NCBI GenBank assembly: GCA_047602905.1
Contig: JBLKOP010000001.1
Coordinates: 26,773 to 90,772 of the forward strand
DNA: 64,000 bases
Reading direction: 5' to 3'
Source of the DNA: Candidatus Woesearchaeota archaeon
GTDB taxonomy: Archaea > Nanobdellota > Nanobdellia > Woesearchaeales > SKIA01
The notes below the pieces were generated by a model that saw nothing but the letters and a program-made list of their open reading frames with translations, did no database searches and was not told the DNA's origin. Both the position numbers and the translations under genes were made by a program. This document shows positions 4,957-57,705 of this stretch, in pieces. The number at the start of each line of letters is the position of its first letter. The stretch's first letter is position 1.

Positions 4957-5592
4957 TTAAAAGTTTTTATGTTTTTTCTCAACACAAGAAACAATATACT
5001 CCTCGTGAATAACCTGAACAGGAAGAGAACCATCAAGAGTAACTATACGATCACTATGCATCCTAGCAAGTTCATCATAGCCCTGCTTAACAAGAGCATG
5101 AAACGAGTCGTTTTGAGACTCCATACGATCCCTCTCTCCTTTACGAGAATTCAATCTTTGAAGGCGCTCCTCTAAACTAATACTCAAATAAAACGTTACG
5201 TCAGGAACCATATCAAAAGACTCATTCATACGCTGTATCAACCCCCAATGTGGTTGTTGCTGTTGATAACGAGCAAACCCTTGATACGCAGAAGTACTAT
5301 CATAAAAACGATCCATAACAACAGTAACTCCTTGAGCAAGGTGTGGACGAATAACTTCTTCAACCATCTGAGCACGAGAAGCATTAAACAAATACAACTC
5401 AGACAAAGAACTCATATCCTCTCCGTGAAGCAACAACGAACGAATCTGCTCCCCCAAATTAGTACCTCCAGGCTCTCTACGAACAATATGATCTATGCCT
5501 TGCTTAGAAAAATACTCTTTTAGCAACTCAATTTGTGTGCTCTTACCACAACCATCAAGGCCTTCAAACGTAATTAACGGAGCAGACCTCAT
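4957..5592 (-). CDS. tmk: thymidylate kinase
   Basis: P-loop ITFEGLDGCGKST, REPGGT, DRFYDSTSAYQG. Confidence 0.85.
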   Translation of the reverse strand: MRSAPLITFEGLDGCGKSTQIELLKEYFSKQGIDHIVRREPGGTNLGEQIRSLLLHGEDMSSLSELYLFNASRAQMVEEVIRPHLAQGVTVVMDRFYDSTSAYQGFARYQQQQPHWGLIQRMNESFDMVPDVTFYLSISLEERLQRLNSRKGERDRMESQNDSFHALVKQGYDELARMHSDRIVTLDGSLPVQVIHEEYIVSCVEKKHKNF

Positions 5593-6764
5593 GAAGCCAT
5601 ACGGGGAGGAAAACCATTAATAAGTACTTTTTCTGCGCGCTGTTTAATAGCATAGTTTTCTACTACGAAATCATCTACTTCTGTCTCGTTTAGTGGATTA
5701 GAAACAACTCGTAATCTCGGTGGCTCAGCATGACTTCTTCGCCCAAGCTGCTCTAATAAATACGGGACGTGATCATAGCCAGGAGTACCCTCTTCTTCAG
5801 GAAGCTTCTTAAGCAAATCCTCAAGAACGGTGTGCGGGTGCTCTTTTCTGAGTGTATCTTGAAGCCAACGAAGATTATCTTCTTGTGCATACCAAGAAGC
5901 GCGTTTATCTGAACCAACATATATGTGGTGATCACCAATATTATGGATGAACTCTCCGGGTTTTACACCTACTTCAACAGCTATTTTTGCTGTTAATGCT
6001 GCGTATTGTGGAGGATTAAACCCTAAGCCTAAGAAATGGTCTGCGCTTCTTTGATTCATTTGCAAATCAAGGCGCTCCTCTCCAGCTCTATCAGTGTATG
6101 TGTACGCTTGAAACATGTTATGACACGGAGCAAGAGCTGCTCGTTTCAGCTTAACATCAACAGGGTTCCAAGCAGTTACTATGTGATATCTGCTCGTAGG
6201 ATCTTCTTGTAAATGAGTTACCATATCTTGAAGCTGATCAACATAAACAATTCCTTGCTCAGTTACGCCTGCAAAGTTTCTCCACTGTTCAGGATAAAAC
6301 TTACCTAGATCACCTGCCTCAGGATTATTTCCTGATAAAACAAGCTCTTCATACTCTTGTAGTGCATCCTCAAAAGCAGGAGTGTCTTTTTTGAGTTGCT
6401 TTCACTTATGATCGTCAGGAAGCTTGTTTCGATAAAAATTAAACGCGTTAGCAGTCCATATCGTCATTCCCTGCTCCAAATACCACTTCAGGTTCGTCTC
6501 GTTACGAATAAAACCCACTATTTCAGGTAGTAACTGTGATTTGTAGCCTATGGGTTTTGTTTGAGAAAGAGGAAAGCTTTCGTCACTAAGATCGTACACT
6601 GCTTGTGTACCAAAAGAACCTATGGTGTGTATAACTGTTCTACTTGCTTTTCGAAAGTTTAGCTTTGAACTCGTCAATAAATCATAGCTGTGTTGATGAT
6701 ATGCTTTGTCGTGTTTGTTTAATGAACTGTCTTCTCTTGGCTTTAACATTACTGCCCCCAACAC
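5589..6764 (-). pseudogene. thyA: thymidylate synthase ThyA interrupted by one in-frame TGA (plus strand 6402-6404)
   Basis: N-terminal ORF (6402-6764) and C-terminal ORF (5589-6224) are in the same frame, with no other stop in the 59 codons between them; conserved ThyA segments flank and span the TGA (GDLGKFYPEQWRNF, HIVTAWNP, ALAPCHNMFQAY, QRSADHFLGLGFN). Confidence 0.75.
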
Positions 6765-14587: not shown

Positions 14588-15550
14588 CTACGAGGAGCAG
14601 TAGAAATATGAGCAAACTTGCTTTAGGTGTGTGAATAGTTGCTTTTTGAATTCTTGATATTCTTGTTTGTCTATTGTTTGAAGTGATAAGTACTGTACGT
14701 CTTCTTGTGTATGTAATTCTTGATTTTGTAATTGCGTGCAGTTTTTTGTGAGCGTTTCTGTGTAGTTTTGCAGTGTTCGCTTGCTTGCTTGAATCTTTCT
14801 TATTATTTGTTGTACGGGTATTTCAAATAGGTCTAGTTGTTTGTTAAGCAAATACATGTCAAGTATGTCTCGCTCTTTTGGTTGTTCTCGTGTGAGTATT
14901 GCTCGAAATTTTTCTAGAGCTATTTCTGTTTTTGGATAGCACGGAATTGTTGGGCTGTGCAGAGTTACTCCAATAACTTGTGCTTGTTCTTGCACGCCTA
15001 GAATATCTGGAAGGTTTGGAACGGTTATTTGTACGGGCTTATTTTGAAGTTCTTCGGTAAAACTTATTTCTAACTTAATACTCTGTTTTTGGTTTGTTAT
15101 TGTAGAGATATAATGCATGTGCAGAACGTATATCGCTCGGCTATTACGTAGCTGTACGTAACGCTTGTTTGTTCTGTCATGAACGAAGTCAAGTCCTGTT
15201 CTTTGAGCTATAAGTTCTATTTCGTCAAAGAGTTCTTTGACGAGGTGTTTTATTACTCTTTCTTGTTGTTGAATGGATTCTAACTCTCGTATATCGTTGC
15301 ATTGCGGGTGTGTGAAGTCAAGATCTTCGCTGATGCGATGATACTTCAGATATGCTTTTGTGAGAAGAGTCCCTCCTTTAAACACAAGAGTTTGTAACCG
15401 TTGTATCTCCTTCTTTTTTGCTGCTTGTGCGAGTTCTGAAAGAAACAAGCTGAGTCGGTAGTCCTTCTCAAACTGTTCTTCTCCTGTGGTATATTGTCCT
15501 TGTTTTTTGAGGAATTGAATATATCGTTGTAATCGTTTTTGTGTAATCAT
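14588..15550 (-). CDS. AbiEii-like nucleotidyltransferase toxin (type IV TA / abortive infection)
   Basis: FKGGTLLTKAYLKYHRISEDLDF motif; 4-bp ATGA overlap with upstream AbiEi-like gene. Confidence 0.6.
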   Translation of the reverse strand: MITQKRLQRYIQFLKKQGQYTTGEEQFEKDYRLSLFLSELAQAAKKKEIQRLQTLVFKGGTLLTKAYLKYHRISEDLDFTHPQCNDIRELESIQQQERVIKHLVKELFDEIELIAQRTGLDFVHDRTNKRYVQLRNSRAIYVLHMHYISTITNQKQSIKLEISFTEELQNKPVQITVPNLPDILGVQEQAQVIGVTLHSPTIPCYPKTEIALEKFRAILTREQPKERDILDMYLLNKQLDLFEIPVQQIIRKIQASKRTLQNYTETLTKNCTQLQNQELHTQEDVQYLSLQTIDKQEYQEFKKQLFTHLKQVCSYFYCSS

Positions 15551-17180: not shown

Positions 17181-18161
17181 ATGGTATACGAAACGATTCT
17201 TATCGTTGTGGCTCTTGTTTTCTTTAGTGGGTTATTTAGTGGATTAACGCTCGGCTTAATGACGCTTAAGCCGCAGACGCTGAAACGAAAAGCAAAGCTT
17301 GGAGACGCACAAGCAAAACAGGTGTATCCTCTGCGAAAAAACGGAAACCTCCTCTTAACTACACTGCTTCTTGCAAACGTGCTTGTAAACACCATTCTGA
17401 GTATCTTCTTAGGAAGCCTAACAACAGGAGTAATCGCTGTGGTGCTCGCAACAGCTCTTATCGTGGTGTTTGGAGAAATCATTCCTCAAGCGCTCATGAA
17501 CAAGCACGCGTTGAGGTTTGGAGCACGAACAAGACACCTCACACGGCTCTTCATGATCCTTCTGTACCCAATAGCAAAACCGGTAAGTGTGTTGCTGGAT
17601 AAGACTCTTGGTCATGAGCTACCAACAATATTTAGTAAAAAAGAGATTGGTATGATGGTAAAAGAGCAAGTAACGATACAAGAAAGTGATCTTGACAACC
17701 TTGATTACAGCATAGTAACTCGAGGCCTTAGCTTTAGTGATAAGCGCGTGCGAGACATAAAAACACCGCTAAAAAACACGTATAGCCTGCAGCAAAACCA
17801 ACGACTTACAAAGAAGTTATTGCACGAAATACAAGAGCAAGGGTATAGTCGCATACCAGTTTTTGATGAAGAACGACGAGGAGTCGTTGGTATTTTGTAC
17901 GCTAAAGACTTAATTGAGGTGCACTACCAAGACAAACAAACAATACGGGACTTAATGAAGCAACCAGTAGAAGTAGTCAGTGAGCGAAACAAGCTGGATA
18001 AAGTTCTTCGGTTGTTTAAAGAAAAAAGAATTCACTTATTTATTGTTTTAGACGCAGACAATAACCCAGTAGGAATAATTACTTTAGAGGACGTACTTGA
18101 AGAAATCATTGGAGAAATAGAGGATGAGTATGATGAAACACCAACAACTCCTTCTTCATAA
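17181..18161 (+). CDS. CNNM/CorC-family (DUF21 + CBS pair) membrane protein
   Basis: N-terminal DUF21 TM region, then CBS-domain-like segments; start placed at MVYETIL. Confidence 0.55.
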   Translation: MVYETILIVVALVFFSGLFSGLTLGLMTLKPQTLKRKAKLGDAQAKQVYPLRKNGNLLLTTLLLANVLVNTILSIFLGSLTTGVIAVVLATALIVVFGEIIPQALMNKHALRFGARTRHLTRLFMILLYPIAKPVSVLLDKTLGHELPTIFSKKEIGMMVKEQVTIQESDLDNLDYSIVTRGLSFSDKRVRDIKTPLKNTYSLQQNQRLTKKLLHEIQEQGYSRIPVFDEERRGVVGILYAKDLIEVHYQDKQTIRDLMKQPVEVVSERNKLDKVLRLFKEKRIHLFIVLDADNNPVGIITLEDVLEEIIGEIEDEYDETPTTPSS

Positions 18162-18171
18162 AAAAAAGAGG

Positions 18172-18293
18172 TGAGCCCAGAGGGATTTGAACCCTCAACC
18201 ACTGGTACACTCAGAGACCTAAGTGCTAACACTAAGGAAATTCCTTATTGCCTCATATAAGACCAGCGCTCTACCAGGTTGAGCTATGGGCTC
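18172..18293 (-). tRNA. tRNA-Ile (anticodon TAT) with a 48-nt intron at the canonical 37/38 position
   Basis: Acceptor GAGCCCA/TGGGCTC, D-stem GCTC/GAGC, anticodon stem CTGGT/ACCAG, loop CTTATA then intron TGAGGCAATAAGGAATTTCCTTAGTGTTAGCACTTAGGTCTCTGAGTG, T-arm GAGGG-TTCAAAT-CCCTC. Confidence 0.7.
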
Positions 18294-18534
18294 GGCTATG
18301 AAGAGCAAGAACGCATTCATTCTTAAACGCTTCGTTTCAGCAAAAAAAAAGAAACATCTAAAAAACGCGTTTACCAAACAACACTTTATGAACGAACTTC
18401 TAGAAGAAGCAGATACGCTTGCACAACAAGAAATAGCCAAGTACGGCCTACCAAGCAAAAAAAACTACGACACGGCAAACAAGAAAGGACTACAACTCGC
18501 AAAACAACTTGGCGCAAACACACAAGTAATATAA
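18286..18534 (+). CDS. hypothetical basic protein
   Basis: ORF only; overlaps tRNA by a few nt. Confidence 0.25.
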   Translation: MGSAMKSKNAFILKRFVSAKKKKHLKNAFTKQHFMNELLEEADTLAQQEIAKYGLPSKKNYDTANKKGLQLAKQLGANTQVI

Positions 18535-20898: not shown

Positions 20899-21666
20899 CT
20901 ATTTGTTTGCTTGTAGGCGTTCTTTTACTTCTGAGAGAGTAAAGTACTTCGCATTTACTTGCATAACCTCATGAAAAGAAACTGGCTCTTGTAGAAGAGC
21001 TACCATGTCCTCATCCCATCTGTTGTAGAGTTTTTTTGCTTGCGAAAACATACGTATAACTAGCTCATCAGTGTTTTCATGCGCGCACTTTGTTGTTACT
21101 AATTGCATTGATATAGGAAGTTGGTGCTTGATTATTTGGTATATATCGTAGTGGTCTCGTGGCTTGTTTCGTTGTATAGTTGCAGCAACCTTTTCTGCGA
21201 TAAGCTCTTGTTTATCTAGACAAAATACTTCGTAAACAGGTATGTTCTCGTAGTAGTGAGATATTTGTTGTTTTTGCGGCTTCTTAAGTAGTGTTGCGTT
21301 CTCATTAAGATCAACGTATATTGTGTCTGTTGTTTGCGTGAATGTTTCGTACTCGCAGATGATACGAACAAACCCTTTCACGTCTTTTCCTGTTGTTATT
21401 GCTTGTATGAACGGTATTTGCCTGAGTAGTTGTTGTATGTCTTTGCGTGCTTGTTTGAGATTTGTTACAGTAAAATCTATGTCTTCTGAGAGCCTTGCAT
21501 GATTAAGAAATATTTTGTTTAGTGCAGTTCCTCCCTTAAAGAAAATGTTTTTTACATCTTTGATTGCGTAGAGTACTTGTGTGAGGTAGTAGTCTTTGAG
21601 GATTAGTCGCTGTGCGAATCCTGTTTTTGCTGCTGTTTGTATTATACGTTTCTTTTCTTCATCCAT
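20899..21666 (-). CDS. AbiEii-like nucleotidyltransferase toxin, second copy
   Basis: FFKGGTALNKIFLNHARLSEDIDF; start taken at MDEEKK because the annotated 90-aa N-terminal extension is low-complexity and overlaps the upstream gene. Confidence 0.6.
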   Translation of the reverse strand: MDEEKKRIIQTAAKTGFAQRLILKDYYLTQVLYAIKDVKNIFFKGGTALNKIFLNHARLSEDIDFTVTNLKQARKDIQQLLRQIPFIQAITTGKDVKGFVRIICEYETFTQTTDTIYVDLNENATLLKKPQKQQISHYYENIPVYEVFCLDKQELIAEKVAATIQRNKPRDHYDIYQIIKHQLPISMQLVTTKCAHENTDELVIRMFSQAKKLYNRWDEDMVALLQEPVSFHEVMQVNAKYFTLSEVKERLQANK

Positions 21667-22223
21667 TGTTTGGTTTTTTCTTTTGGTTCTATTCGTATGT
21701 TGTGTCCTTGTATTGTGTTGTTTTGTGCTTCTTGGAGTCTTTTTTTTGTCGTTTTTTTGAATTTGTATCTCGTGTTTAGTATTGTTGTTGTGTTGTTTCT
21801 TTTGTTTGTGTAAATATCTACTTGTTGAGGTATTTGGTCTGTTAGATTGTAATAATTTGCTGCTGCCCACCCTCCTATGAAGTAGTCTTGTGAGTTCATC
21901 ATCTCGTCTGCTATAATAAATTCGTGCTCGTACCATGTGTTGTTTGGTGCTTGTATTGGTAGGAGATAGTATTTGTTTTTGTTCAGTTTGAGGATGCGCT
22001 TTTTTTGTAGAAGACGGTGTATTATGTAATAGAGTTGTTGTTTGTTTGTTGCGTGGTGTTTGATGTCTTCTTGTGTGAAGAAGTACTGGTTGTTGAACTC
22101 AAGTTCTTGAATGATGCGTACTTCTCGTTGAGAAAGAGAGGAAATATCATTATTTTTTGACATAATCAAAGATAAGTGATGTTTATTTATAAATGCAGGG
22201 GTTTTTTGTGTCTGTGCAAACAT
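21642..22223 (-). CDS. AbiEi-like antitoxin, second copy
   Basis: Upstream partner of AbiEii-like gene, 25-bp overlap; TATA about 29 bp upstream. Confidence 0.45.
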   Translation of the reverse strand: MFAQTQKTPAFINKHHLSLIMSKNNDISSLSQREVRIIQELEFNNQYFFTQEDIKHHATNKQQLYYIIHRLLQKKRILKLNKNKYYLLPIQAPNNTWYEHEFIIADEMMNSQDYFIGGWAAANYYNLTDQIPQQVDIYTNKRNNTTTILNTRYKFKKTTKKRLQEAQNNTIQGHNIRIEPKEKTKQWMKKRNV

Positions 22224-36931: not shown

Positions 36932-37933
36932 ATGTTGTGTTTGGCTATTGAGTCTACTGCTCACACGTTTGCTGCTTCTGTTGTTAAGAAGTCTTCTTCT
37001 GGTTTGGTGAGTGTTTTGTCTTCTGTTCGTGATATGTTTACTACTGAGGGCGGGGGTCTTATTCCTCGTGAGCTTGCTGATCATCATGTTCTTGTTTGGC
37101 GAGAAGTTGTTTCTTCTGCTCTTGCTGAGGCGGGTGTTTCTTTGTCTTCTATTGGTTTGTTGGCGTATTCTCGCGCTCCTGGTTTTGGTCATGCTTTGCG
37201 TGTGGGTAGTGGTGTTGTTCGTTGCTTGGCTTCTCGTTATGGTTTGCCTGTTGTTGGGGTTAATCATTGCGTTGCTCACTTAGAGGTTGGTCGGGTTCTT
37301 GGTGGGGTGGCTGATCCTGTGTTGTTGTATGCTTCTGGTGCTAATACGCAGGTGATTGCTTTGGAGGGTGGTCGGTATCGGGTTTTTGGTGAGACGCTTG
37401 ATTTGGGGGTGGGTAATTTTTTGGATTCTCTTGCTCGTAGTATGGGTTTGGGTTTTCCTGGTGGCCCTGCTCTTGAGAAGCTAGCTGCTTCTTATCGTGG
37501 TTCTCTTGTTGAGTTGCCGTACGTGGTTAAGGGTATGGATGTTTCTTTTTCTGGTATTCAGTCTGCTGTTCGTTTGTTGCTTAAGAGGGGTGTTTCTTCT
37601 GAGGCTATTGCTTTTTCTGTTCAGGAGCACGTGTTTGCTATGCTTGTGGAGGTTTCTGAGCGAGCGTTGGCTCATACGGGTAAGTCTTCTTTGGTTCTTG
37701 GTGGTGGCGTTGCTTGTAATGCTCGTTTGCAGGAGATGTGTTCTTTGATGTGTTCTTCTCGTGGAGTTTCTTTTTTTGCTCCTGAGAAGCGGTTTCTTGT
37801 TGATAACGCTGCTATGATTGGTGTTCTTGGTTTCTCTGTTTTTGACCGGTTTGGTTCTGTTTGTGTTTCTGAGGTAGATTTTGATCCGTATGAGCGTACT
37901 GATGAGGCGGTTGTTGCTTTGTGGGATGTCTAG
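36932..37933 (+). CDS. kae1: Kae1/TsaD tRNA N6-threonylcarbamoyladenosine synthase
   Basis: LAIESTAHTFAASVV, GVNHCVAHLEVG (HxxxH metal site), GGGVACNARL; codons almost exclusively NNT/NNG. Confidence 0.8.
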   Translation: MLCLAIESTAHTFAASVVKKSSSGLVSVLSSVRDMFTTEGGGLIPRELADHHVLVWREVVSSALAEAGVSLSSIGLLAYSRAPGFGHALRVGSGVVRCLASRYGLPVVGVNHCVAHLEVGRVLGGVADPVLLYASGANTQVIALEGGRYRVFGETLDLGVGNFLDSLARSMGLGFPGGPALEKLAASYRGSLVELPYVVKGMDVSFSGIQSAVRLLLKRGVSSEAIAFSVQEHVFAMLVEVSERALAHTGKSSLVLGGGVACNARLQEMCSLMCSSRGVSFFAPEKRFLVDNAAMIGVLGFSVFDRFGSVCVSEVDFDPYERTDEAVVALWDV

Positions 37934-48473: not shown

Positions 48474-48866
48474 TTACACGCGCATAGCAGCTTGTTTGCT
48501 GAGCTCATCAGCAACACTGTTTTCTTCTCGAGGAACGTAACTAATAGTAAACGAACTAAGTTGCTGCGCTAACGCCCAAATAGCTTCTGCTAAGGGAAGT
48601 AGTTTCTCATCCTTAATGCGCCAGTTCTTACTGACTTGCTCAACAACTAACTTGCTATCAAGAAACGCCTCTACCTCAGTAACTCCCATATCAAGAGCTA
48701 ACTGCAACGCCTTAAGAAGAGCGGAGTACTCAGCAACGTTATTAGTACCTACTCCATGAAAAAACTTTTCTTTACGAACACCCAGACTCGTCTCTATAAC
48801 CACACCAAGACCCATAGGACCAGGATTGCCCAGGCAAGCACCATCAGTATGAATAGTTGCTTTCAT
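48474..48866 (-). CDS. rnhA: ribonuclease HI
   Basis: TDGACLGNPGPMG, TNNVAEYSALLKAL, REENSVADELS. Confidence 0.8.
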   Translation of the reverse strand: MKATIHTDGACLGNPGPMGLGVVIETSLGVRKEKFFHGVGTNNVAEYSALLKALQLALDMGVTEVEAFLDSKLVVEQVSKNWRIKDEKLLPLAEAIWALAQQLSSFTISYVPREENSVADELSKQAAMRV

Positions 48867-50323
48867 TGTTTTGGCTTCATAGCAGGAAAGAAAATAACGT
48901 CACGAATACTGGTGGTATTCGTAAGTAACATGACTAAACGATCAATACCGATACCTATACCGCCAGTAGGAGGCATGCCGTACTTCATAGCCTCAACAAA
49001 ATCTTCATCCATAGGGTGTGCTTCGTCATCTCCTGCAACTCGCTCATCAACTTGCTGGCGCAAACGAGCTTCTTGGTCGCGAGGATCAGTAAGTTCGCTG
49101 TACGCGTTAGCAATCTCCCAGCCATTAATGAAGAGCTCAAAACGCTCAACGTACCGCTCATCTTTGCGATGAATTTTTGTTAACGGACTGGTCTCAACAG
49201 GGTAATCAGTGATGAAGGTAGGCTGAATAAGTTGCTCCTCAACGAGTTCTTCAAACAACGCAAGAACAGCGTAGCCCCAAGTAGGCTGGTTAGGAGTTGC
49301 TTTGTGCTTCTTACAATACGCAAGGATCTCCTGCTCATCCATATCCTCCACGTTAAGATTAGCGTATTTCTTAATAGCATCCACCATGCGTAAACGAGTA
49401 AACGGAAGCTTCAGACTAATCGTTTCTGTACCAACAACTACTTTTGGCTCTCCATGCAACTGCTGTGCTAAACCACTAATGAGCTGCTCGGCTTGTTGCA
49501 TCATAACAGTATAATCAGCGTACGCCTGGTACCACTCAACCTGCGTAAACTCTGGGTTGTGCGTGGTATCAACTCCTTCGTTACGAAAATCTCTTGCTAT
49601 CTCATAAATCTTCTCAAAACCACCAATGACTAGTCGCTTCAGGTACAACTCGTTACTAATACGAAGATATAAGTCCTGCTTAAGAGCGTTGTGATGAGTA
49701 ACAAACGGACGAGCATTAGCGCCCCCGTAAATAGGTTGCAAGATAGGCGTTTCTACCTCTAAAAACCCTTGTTTATCAAGGAACTTACGAATACCACTAA
49801 TGACTTTACTTCTTTTTACGAAACGATCCTTACTCTCAGGATTATAGAGTAAATCAAGGTATCGTTTACGATAACGAATCTCTACGTCTTGTATTCCATG
49901 ATACTTCTCAGGCATAGGCATAAGGTTCTTTGAAAGAAGGGTTAATTGATGAGCACGAACAGTAATCTCATCTGTTTTTGTACGAAACACAGGACCAGCA
50001 ACACCAACGATGTCACCAACATCTAAGTTCTTTAGTAAGGAGAACTCCTTAGTATCGTTTTTACTCAGAAGAACTTGTATCTGCCCAGAATCATCTTGTA
50101 CCTTAAGAAAAGCAAGTTTTCCCATATCCCGAGAAAACATTACTCGACCAGCAACACTAACAATCTCCTCAGAAGGAGTGCTCGTAACGTTCTTAAACTC
50201 CTCAAGAACCGTTTTTGCTTGGTGAGTTACGTCGTAGCGGTGAGGGTACGCGGTAATACCTGCTTCTTCAAGAGCAGCGAGTTTATCGTGTTTATCAGCA
50301 ATAATGTCATCCATAAGCAACAA
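48863..50323 (-). CDS. lysS: lysyl-tRNA synthetase, class II
   Basis: Class II motifs (FRNEGVDTTHNPEFTQVEWYQAY; GGIGIGIDRLVMLL); N-terminal OB anticodon-binding domain. Confidence 0.85.
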   Translation of the reverse strand: MLLMDDIIADKHDKLAALEEAGITAYPHRYDVTHQAKTVLEEFKNVTSTPSEEIVSVAGRVMFSRDMGKLAFLKVQDDSGQIQVLLSKNDTKEFSLLKNLDVGDIVGVAGPVFRTKTDEITVRAHQLTLLSKNLMPMPEKYHGIQDVEIRYRKRYLDLLYNPESKDRFVKRSKVISGIRKFLDKQGFLEVETPILQPIYGGANARPFVTHHNALKQDLYLRISNELYLKRLVIGGFEKIYEIARDFRNEGVDTTHNPEFTQVEWYQAYADYTVMMQQAEQLISGLAQQLHGEPKVVVGTETISLKLPFTRLRMVDAIKKYANLNVEDMDEQEILAYCKKHKATPNQPTWGYAVLALFEELVEEQLIQPTFITDYPVETSPLTKIHRKDERYVERFELFINGWEIANAYSELTDPRDQEARLRQQVDERVAGDDEAHPMDEDFVEAMKYGMPPTGGIGIGIDRLVMLLTNTTSIRDVIFFPAMKPKQ

Positions 50324-57587: not shown

Positions 57588-57705
57588 GCGGATGTAGCTC
57601 AGCCTGGTTAGAGCACTACGCTCATATTGATGAGCACTGAGATCAAGTTATTGATTGATGACAGGAGATACGTAGGGGTCCGGAGTTCAAATCTCCGCAT
57701 CCGCA
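57588..57705 (+). tRNA. tRNA-Met (anticodon CAT, elongator or Ile2-type) with about 43-nt intron
   Basis: Acceptor GCGGATG/CATCCGC, anticodon stem CTACG/CGTAG, loop CTCATA then intron; TATA 30 bp upstream; T-run downstream. Confidence 0.7.

Follow-up and report, generated by a model that had tools for sequence, protein, structure and literature searches.

Positions 18172–18293 (minus strand) of a 64,000-nt stretch of contig JBLKOP010000001.1 from a Candidatus Woesearchaeota archaeon (assembly GCA_047602905.1; the whole stretch is hereafter called the window) hold what, judged from its sequence, is a real and apparently functional tRNA-Ile gene that has UAU as its anticodon and contains an intron of 48 nt. 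Very probably, the product is a dedicated decoder of AUA codons in this member of the Woesearchaeota, used in place of the route through TiaS and tRNA-Ile2(CAU). The source being a Woesearchaeote, we place the gene in DPANN; the rRNA operon found in the window is archaeal. The gene is a new example and represents no new phenomenon or mechanism: genes of this kind are rare in cultured archaea and have already been described in other DPANN.

Identification of the tRNA-Ile(UAU) gene

The features discussed throughout are as follows.

18172–18293, minus strand: pre-tRNA-Ile(UAU) gene, from G1 (18293) to the discriminator A73 (18172); Rfam RF00005, ARAGORN with introns, identical sequence in four assemblies
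18256–18293, minus strand: 5′ exon, tRNA positions 1–37, with acceptor GAGCCCA, D-arm, anticodon stem CUGGU and loop C32 U33 U34 A35 U36 A37
18208–18255, minus strand: intron of 48 nt at the canonical position 37/38, UGAGGCAAUAAGGAAUUUCCUUAGUGUUAGCACUUAGGUCUCUGAGUG; ARAGORN and BHB enumeration
18172–18207, minus strand: 3′ exon, positions 38–73, with U38, ACCAG, variable loop UGGUU, T-arm GAGGG-UUCAAAU-CCCUC, acceptor UGGGCUC and A73
18204–18267, minus strand: hBHBh′ splice motif (h, H, h′ and two 3-nt bulges); BHB enumeration, compensatory changes in relatives
18320–18327, minus strand: TATA-like box TTTAAGAA, 27–34 nt upstream of G1, read from the sequence; putative promoter
18160–18167, minus strand: T8 run, 4 nt after A73; putative oligo-T terminator

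An Rfam search of the whole window matched RF00005 at exactly 18172–18293 (61.7 bits, E = 6e-11; gathering score 29), in a full-length alignment that covers model positions 1–71 of 71 and has 49 nt inserted after “CUUAUA”. Run with default settings, ARAGORN made no call at 18172–18293; with introns allowed, it identified tRNA-Ile(tat) and placed a 48-nt intron directly behind A37, i(39,48). The first-pass annotation, based on hand-folding, had proposed an intron-containing tRNA-Ile(UAU) here, with the loop CTTATA and a 48-nt intron at position 37/38. Its extent is reproduced to the nucleotide by Rfam, its isotype and anticodon by ARAGORN, and both loop and intron prove exact by ARAGORN with introns and by the single productive splice motif described below.

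The spliced product is 74 nt long (GAGCCCA-UA-GCUC-AACCUGGUA-GAGC-G-CUGGU-CUUAUAU-ACCAG-UGGUU-GAGGG-UUCAAAU-CCCUC-UGGGCUC-A), and all 21 of its 21 stem pairs are Watson-Crick. Read from this mature sequence, the conserved tertiary nucleotides are present, namely U8, A14, G18 and G19, the T-loop UUCAAAU and the A15-U48 pair. CCA is not encoded, A73 being followed by CCU. Also present are A73, A35, U36, A37, C4-G69 and U12-A23, which are taken from a published list that does not define archaeal IleRS determinants (PMC9976931), and the 29-41 pair is G-C as opposed to the C-G that acts as a minor Ile determinant in E. coli, where C4-G69 and U12-A23 likewise count as minor elements. Four contigs from as many runs, all of them independent Logan metagenome assemblies, carry the complete 122-nt pre-tRNA at 100% identity.

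The intron and its bulge-helix-bulge motif

Because an archaeal intron is recognizable by its bulge-helix-bulge (BHB) motif, which defines it, all BHB arrangements in the pre-tRNA, that is, each combination of a 3-nt bulge, a 4-bp helix and a 3-nt bulge, were enumerated. Seven arrangements were found, six of which destroy the tRNA, while one gives a valid 74-nt cloverleaf. In the latter, h comprises 7 bp (the anticodon stem and two further pairs), H is formed by C32–A35 (CUUA) paired with intron nucleotides 43–46 (UGAG) in 4 bp including one U-G, and h′ has 5 bp between intron nucleotides 2–6 (GAGGC) and 38–42 (GUCUC). The bulges are UAU and UGU, each with one cleavage site, and cutting after the second bulge nucleotide on both sides removes precisely the 48 nt that separate A37 from U38 and leaves the loop C-U-U-A-U-A-U. 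Given that only one BHB is productive, the anticodon is fixed as UAU.

The BHB was absent from the fold predicted by unconstrained minimum free energy (MFE) folding, hence the explicit enumeration and a constrained-fold evaluation. In the latter, the isolated arm came to −15.2 kcal/mol in the BHB conformation compared with −20.6 kcal/mol for the MFE fold, a difference of 5.4 kcal/mol, which is not unusual for a motif that is recognized by protein.

Hand-folding and calls from a single program can misplace archaeal introns, and in some relatives ARAGORN itself sets the intron one base off, though the mature sequence is unchanged. One may thus ask whether the intron is misplaced here, or a base miscalled, so that the true anticodon is CAU or GAU. 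This is extremely unlikely: the exhaustive scan leaves a single productive splice, Rfam and ARAGORN agree with each other, four assemblies show an identical sequence, and relatives retrieved with position 34 left free also carry U34 (see below).

A box C/D guide RNA in the intron was considered and rejected, as CUGA is present but a C box is absent, and the relatives are without the CUGA. It was likewise rejected for the intron of a second tRNA gene of the window, tRNA(CAU), in which UGAUGA occurs twice and CUGA once, but with only 3 nt from C to D′, and UGAUGAG there simply matches the CUCAUA loop by complementarity.

Putative expression signals and gene neighborhood

The putative promoter and terminator of the gene have counterparts elsewhere. 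Boxes like TTTAAGAA lie upstream of most other tRNA genes of the window (for example CTTATAAA before tRNA-Gly and tRNA(CAU)), a T8 run is also found 3′ of tRNA-Gly and tRNA(CAU), and a TTTATATA-type box occurs at a similar distance in many relatives. The arrangement with tRNA-Glu and tRNA-Gly(GCC) is likewise seen again in several relatives.

Several observations were made on the surrounding DNA. Two AbiEii-type nucleotidyltransferase toxin genes (14588–15550 and 20899–21936, both minus strand) flank a cluster of tRNA-Glu, tRNA-Ile(UAU) and tRNA-Gly together with several hypothetical genes, a CNNM/CBS gene neighbors tRNA-Ile(UAU), and an integrase gene lies just past the left end of the window (seen in assembly L145). 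A small hypothetical ORF at about 18286–18534 on the plus strand (78 aa as NCBI ACMXYD_00260, 82 aa in Logan) runs opposite to the tRNA gene, over its 5′ end and promoter region, and is probably a spurious call. Thymidylate synthase (PF00303) is apparently split into 5589–6224 and 6402–6764 (minus strand), ORFs of 211 and 120 aa that lie about 177 nt apart, and the same arrangement appears in the independent assemblies L145 and L146. The window further encodes a class II LysRS of bacterial type (48863–50314, minus strand; 692 bits to NF001756), and just to its right (16680–18371 of L121) a bacterial-type AspRS with a GAD domain stands beside a second class II tRNA synthetase of Asp/Asn type; the bacterial-type LysRS and AspRS look like probable inter-domain transfers.

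Conservation among relatives

Genomes were scanned, one per species, with a semi-degenerate pattern of the D-arm plus CUUAUA, which gave at least 120 matches; the source genome is not among the matches listed, and the archaeal count is a lower bound. At least 14 archaeal loci were found, belonging to Nanoarchaeota, Pacearchaeota, Woesearchaeota, Micrarchaeota, three Iainarchaeum, Aenigmatarchaeota and one Promethearchaeota (Asgard), with five labeled only as “archaeon” or “uncultured archaeon”. An intron after A37 is present in at least seven of the archaeal loci (7 of 14 among the matches listed). The closest exons among the matches listed are those of Pacearchaeota RS_5_10 (L074, 86% identity) and Nanoarchaeota MAG208 (L031, 84%), both of which share the GAGCC acceptor start and the intron site with our gene; their introns, in contrast, are 44 nt long and unrelated in sequence, and their H contains one A-G mismatch (relaxed) where that of the Woesearchaeote is strict.

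Most of the matches listed (L001–L120) come from CPR/Patescibacteria (Saccharibacteria, Paceibacteria, Nomurabacteria and others), in addition to Streptomyces and Acidobacteriota, and from these at least 120 matches an intron-less tRNA-Ile(UAU) appears to be widespread in CPR bacteria. The Promethearchaeota match (MAG JBGLND010000001.1, L039 6987–7102) is a tRNA-Ile(UAU) with a 41-nt intron at 37/38, an H of 3 out of 4 bp and an h′ of 4 bp, and constitutes a eukaryote-style AUA decoder.

In the genome scan, conservation of CUUAUA follows from the construction of the pattern, so a second scan was run on metagenomes with the same backbone and with N at position 34. Among its 15 matches, U34 was found in 13, G34 in none and C34 in two, the last two being bacterial-style Met genes. 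Twelve of the 15 are archaeal-type, with introns of 42–51 nt that differ greatly in sequence. Near the tRNA-Ile(UAU) of some relatives, ARAGORN also predicts tRNA-Glu(CUC) genes whose introns, at 86–101 nt, would be unusually long (L130 13619–13794, L140 10335–10495, L141 177–351).

In a fixed register, the BHB is kept in the 15 relatives whose intron occupies this site. On the 10 distinct rows of this set, 95.4% of the cells are paired, compared with 33–46% when the 3′ partner is slid by 1–3 columns; all four of the four h′ pairs have changed on both sides, and the covariation score was reached by none of 500 shuffles. By these alignments the splice motif is under selection and is maintained through compensatory changes.

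These results bear on whether the gene could be a decaying or silent pseudogene, for instance a duplicate tRNA-Ile with a mutated anticodon that is unused in translation. Its position among hypothetical and AbiEii toxin genes would suit such a reading. However, the perfect cloverleaf scores 61.7 bits, four assemblies agree on the sequence without a difference, relatives share the backbone and U34 and show covariation in the splice motif, promoter-like and terminator-like signals are in place, and the AUA codons counted below need a decoder. We therefore regard a pseudogene as very unlikely and continue with a functional tRNA-Ile(UAU).

Use and meaning of AUA codons

Codons were counted in 60 non-overlapping ORFs of the window (15,572 codons). 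No Ile codon is more frequent than ATA, which occurs 396 times (44% of Ile, 25.5 per 1000 codons) and ranks 13th of 61 overall. The first-pass annotation had called AUA one of the most used codons, which holds for its place among the Ile codons and is generous for a codon at rank 13. It had ascribed this to an A+C bias at third positions; A-richness is real, but the order in the 60 ORFs is A, T, C, G (0.38, 0.26, 0.21 and 0.15). Its further argument that AUA usage fits a dedicated tRNA stands, AUA being a heavily used Ile codon, and these 396 codons need a decoder.

The meaning of the codon was read from the aIF2-gamma gene of the window, whose codons were placed on alignments to the homologues from M. 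jannaschii and P. abyssi. ATA codons lie opposite Ile in 8 of 11 cases for M. jannaschii and 7 of 11 for P. abyssi, the rest facing Val, Leu or Gln, and in neither alignment is any of the 11 opposite Met. This profile matches that of ATT and ATC, while ATG codons are opposite Met in 5 of 12. Since ATA aligns with Ile and never with Met, the alignments indicate that AUA is read as Ile in this organism. A reassignment of AUA to Met, as in many mitochondria, would make the tRNA a Met acceptor, and a UAU anticodon can in principle read AUA as well as AUG. Besides the aIF2-gamma profile, the CAU anticodon required for MetRS identity (PMC9976931) speaks against this, and we give the reassignment next to no credence.

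The TiaS route and the tRNA(CAU) gene of the window

A functional tRNA-Ile(UAU) that decodes AUA may stand in place of the TiaS route or alongside it. A search for TiaS-family matches among 30 ORFs of the window and among the Pfam annotations of some 8 kb of flanking DNA to either side (about 80 kb in total) found none, and the window holds no IleRS gene. Our literature search found no paper linking TiaS and DPANN beyond ARMAN.

The window does hold a second intron-containing tRNA, the tRNA(CAU) at 57588–57705 (plus strand), with a 43-nt intron at 37/38 and located 41 nt downstream of tRNA-Ala(GGC). It has G1-C72 and lacks a GGG/CCC run in the anticodon stem, and is therefore not the initiator; its BHB is relaxed, with an A35-G mismatch in H. 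Most simply, it is the elongator tRNA-Met. It could in principle be tRNA-Ile2, in which case the UAU tRNA might really supplement the TiaS route and not replace it; the literature yielded no applicable sequence rule by which Ile2(CAU) could be distinguished from an elongator Met tRNA in archaea.

Redundant decoding of AUA, with TiaS and a tRNA-Ile2(CAU) (possibly this very gene) kept alongside tRNA-Ile(UAU), is an alternative reading. A non-initiator tRNA(CAU) is present, the portion of the genome inspected amounts to about 80 kb, and both systems coexist in bacteria, where some Firmicutes carry tilS together with a TAT gene (PMC3575796). Yet one non-initiator CAU gene is expected in any case, as every archaeon needs an elongator tRNA-Met(CAU), and the gene in question has no acceptor, anticodon or T stem in common with the UAU gene. 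Moreover, TiaS is missing from the roughly 80 kb of reachable DNA, and Nanoarchaeum, Korarchaeum and ARMAN are all without tRNA-Ile2(CAU), with the absence of TiaS stated for ARMAN. On balance we judge redundancy unlikely, and favor replacement of the TiaS route by the encoded UAU tRNA.

Proposed maturation and decoding

The following pathway would account for the features of the gene. Transcription may start from the TATA-box promoter and end at the oligo-T run. The splicing endonuclease would then cut the 48-nt intron at the two 3-nt bulges of the strict hBHBh′ and the exons would be ligated; the motif is observed, whereas the enzymology is modeled on that of ARMAN-2. Because CCA is not encoded, its addition is proposed to follow splicing.

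A37 would presumably be converted to t6A through the Kae1/KEOPS pathway. The first-pass annotation had placed Kae1 in the window, and it is indeed found there (36932–37933, PF00814, 236.6 bits; NCBI also names the product Kae1). To our knowledge Kae1 is universal in archaea, so that its presence in the window adds nothing specific.

The mature tRNA, with U34-A35-U36, would be charged by IleRS and read AUA by Watson-Crick pairing, the encoded UAU tRNA thereby replacing the usual archaeal agmatidine-modified tRNA-Ile2(CAU) made by TiaS. Misreading of AUG through U34-G wobble would likely be avoided either by modification of U34 or by adaptations of IleRS and ribosome of the M. mobile type.

Comparison with known AUA decoders

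The first-pass annotation had described a genomic UAU tRNA-Ile as rare in archaea. This is true of cultured archaea, in which tRNA-Ile(UAU) was reported in 2 of 167 genomes (PMC6000648), and another study names just Nanoarchaeum and Korarchaeum with it among the archaeal genomes it analyzed (PMC8450103). It is not true of DPANN, where the gene is known from ARMAN-2, -4 and -5 (PMC3239211) and was found in at least six lineages by our scans.

The nearest precedent is that of ARMAN. ARMAN-2, -4 and -5 possess tRNA-Ile(UAU), whereas TiaS and tRNA-Ile2(CAU) are missing from all three, and the pre-tRNA-Ile(UAU) of ARMAN-2 has a 25-nt intron at 37/38 with a strict hBHBh′ that the three-unit epsilon2 endonuclease of ARMAN-2 cuts in vitro (Fujishima et al., 2011, PMC3239211). 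ARMAN-2 (Micrarchaeota) and the Woesearchaeote thus have in common their membership of DPANN, the UAU anticodon, the 37/38 intron, the strict hBHBh′ and the proposal that the tRNA substitutes for TiaS and tRNA-Ile2(CAU). They differ in that the ARMAN-2 intron measures 25 nt instead of 48 nt and is unrelated in sequence. For ARMAN-2, moreover, splicing was shown in vitro and the absence of TiaS and tRNA-Ile2 was established from the genomes, whereas the Woesearchaeote gene is known from DNA sequence and the TiaS search spans about 80 kb.

Nanoarchaeum equitans and Korarchaeum cryptofilum, thermophiles of other phyla, also have a genomic UAU tRNA-Ile in genomes without tRNA-Ile2(CAU) (PMC8450103, PMC6000648). 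The Korarchaeum UAU gene has an intron as well, and is a near-copy of that organism's own tRNA-Ile(GAU) (PMC6000648).

Other systems reach the same end by different means. The archaeal tRNA-Ile2(CAU) does the same job, that is, reading AUA as Ile without AUG, but its C34 is modified post-transcriptionally to agmatidine by TiaS, in contrast to the U34 encoded here. Mycoplasma mobile reads AUA with an encoded tRNA-Ile2(UAU) whose U34 is unmodified, relying on Arg865 of IleRS and on adaptation of the ribosome (PMC3575796). The eukaryotic tRNA-Ile(UAU) resembles our gene in its encoded UAU and in its intron at 37/38, and its anticodon is pseudouridine-A-pseudouridine (PMC6000648).

Implications for AUA decoding in DPANN

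If the preferred reading is correct, the commonest Ile codon of this Woesearchaeote is served by a tRNA with a genomically encoded UAU anticodon, in place of the agmatidine pathway. Taken with the relatives found, the trait reaches well past the published cases of Nanoarchaeum, Korarchaeum and ARMAN across DPANN. In yeast, the formation of pseudouridine at positions 34 and 36 of tRNA-Ile(UAU) depends on the intron. It is conceivable, if rather improbable, that a UAU tRNA-Ile, usually with a 37/38 intron whose 3′ part pairs with U33-U34-A35, is a general AUA strategy of DPANN and some Asgard, and that the intron is perhaps required for anticodon modification as in yeast. Were this so, eukaryote-like decoding of AUA would have deep archaeal roots and would not reflect scattered, lineage-specific gains.

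The gene is useful for annotation, since default ARAGORN misses it, and for surveys of TiaS loss. It also offers a candidate system for studying how archaea avoid the misreading of AUG by U34.
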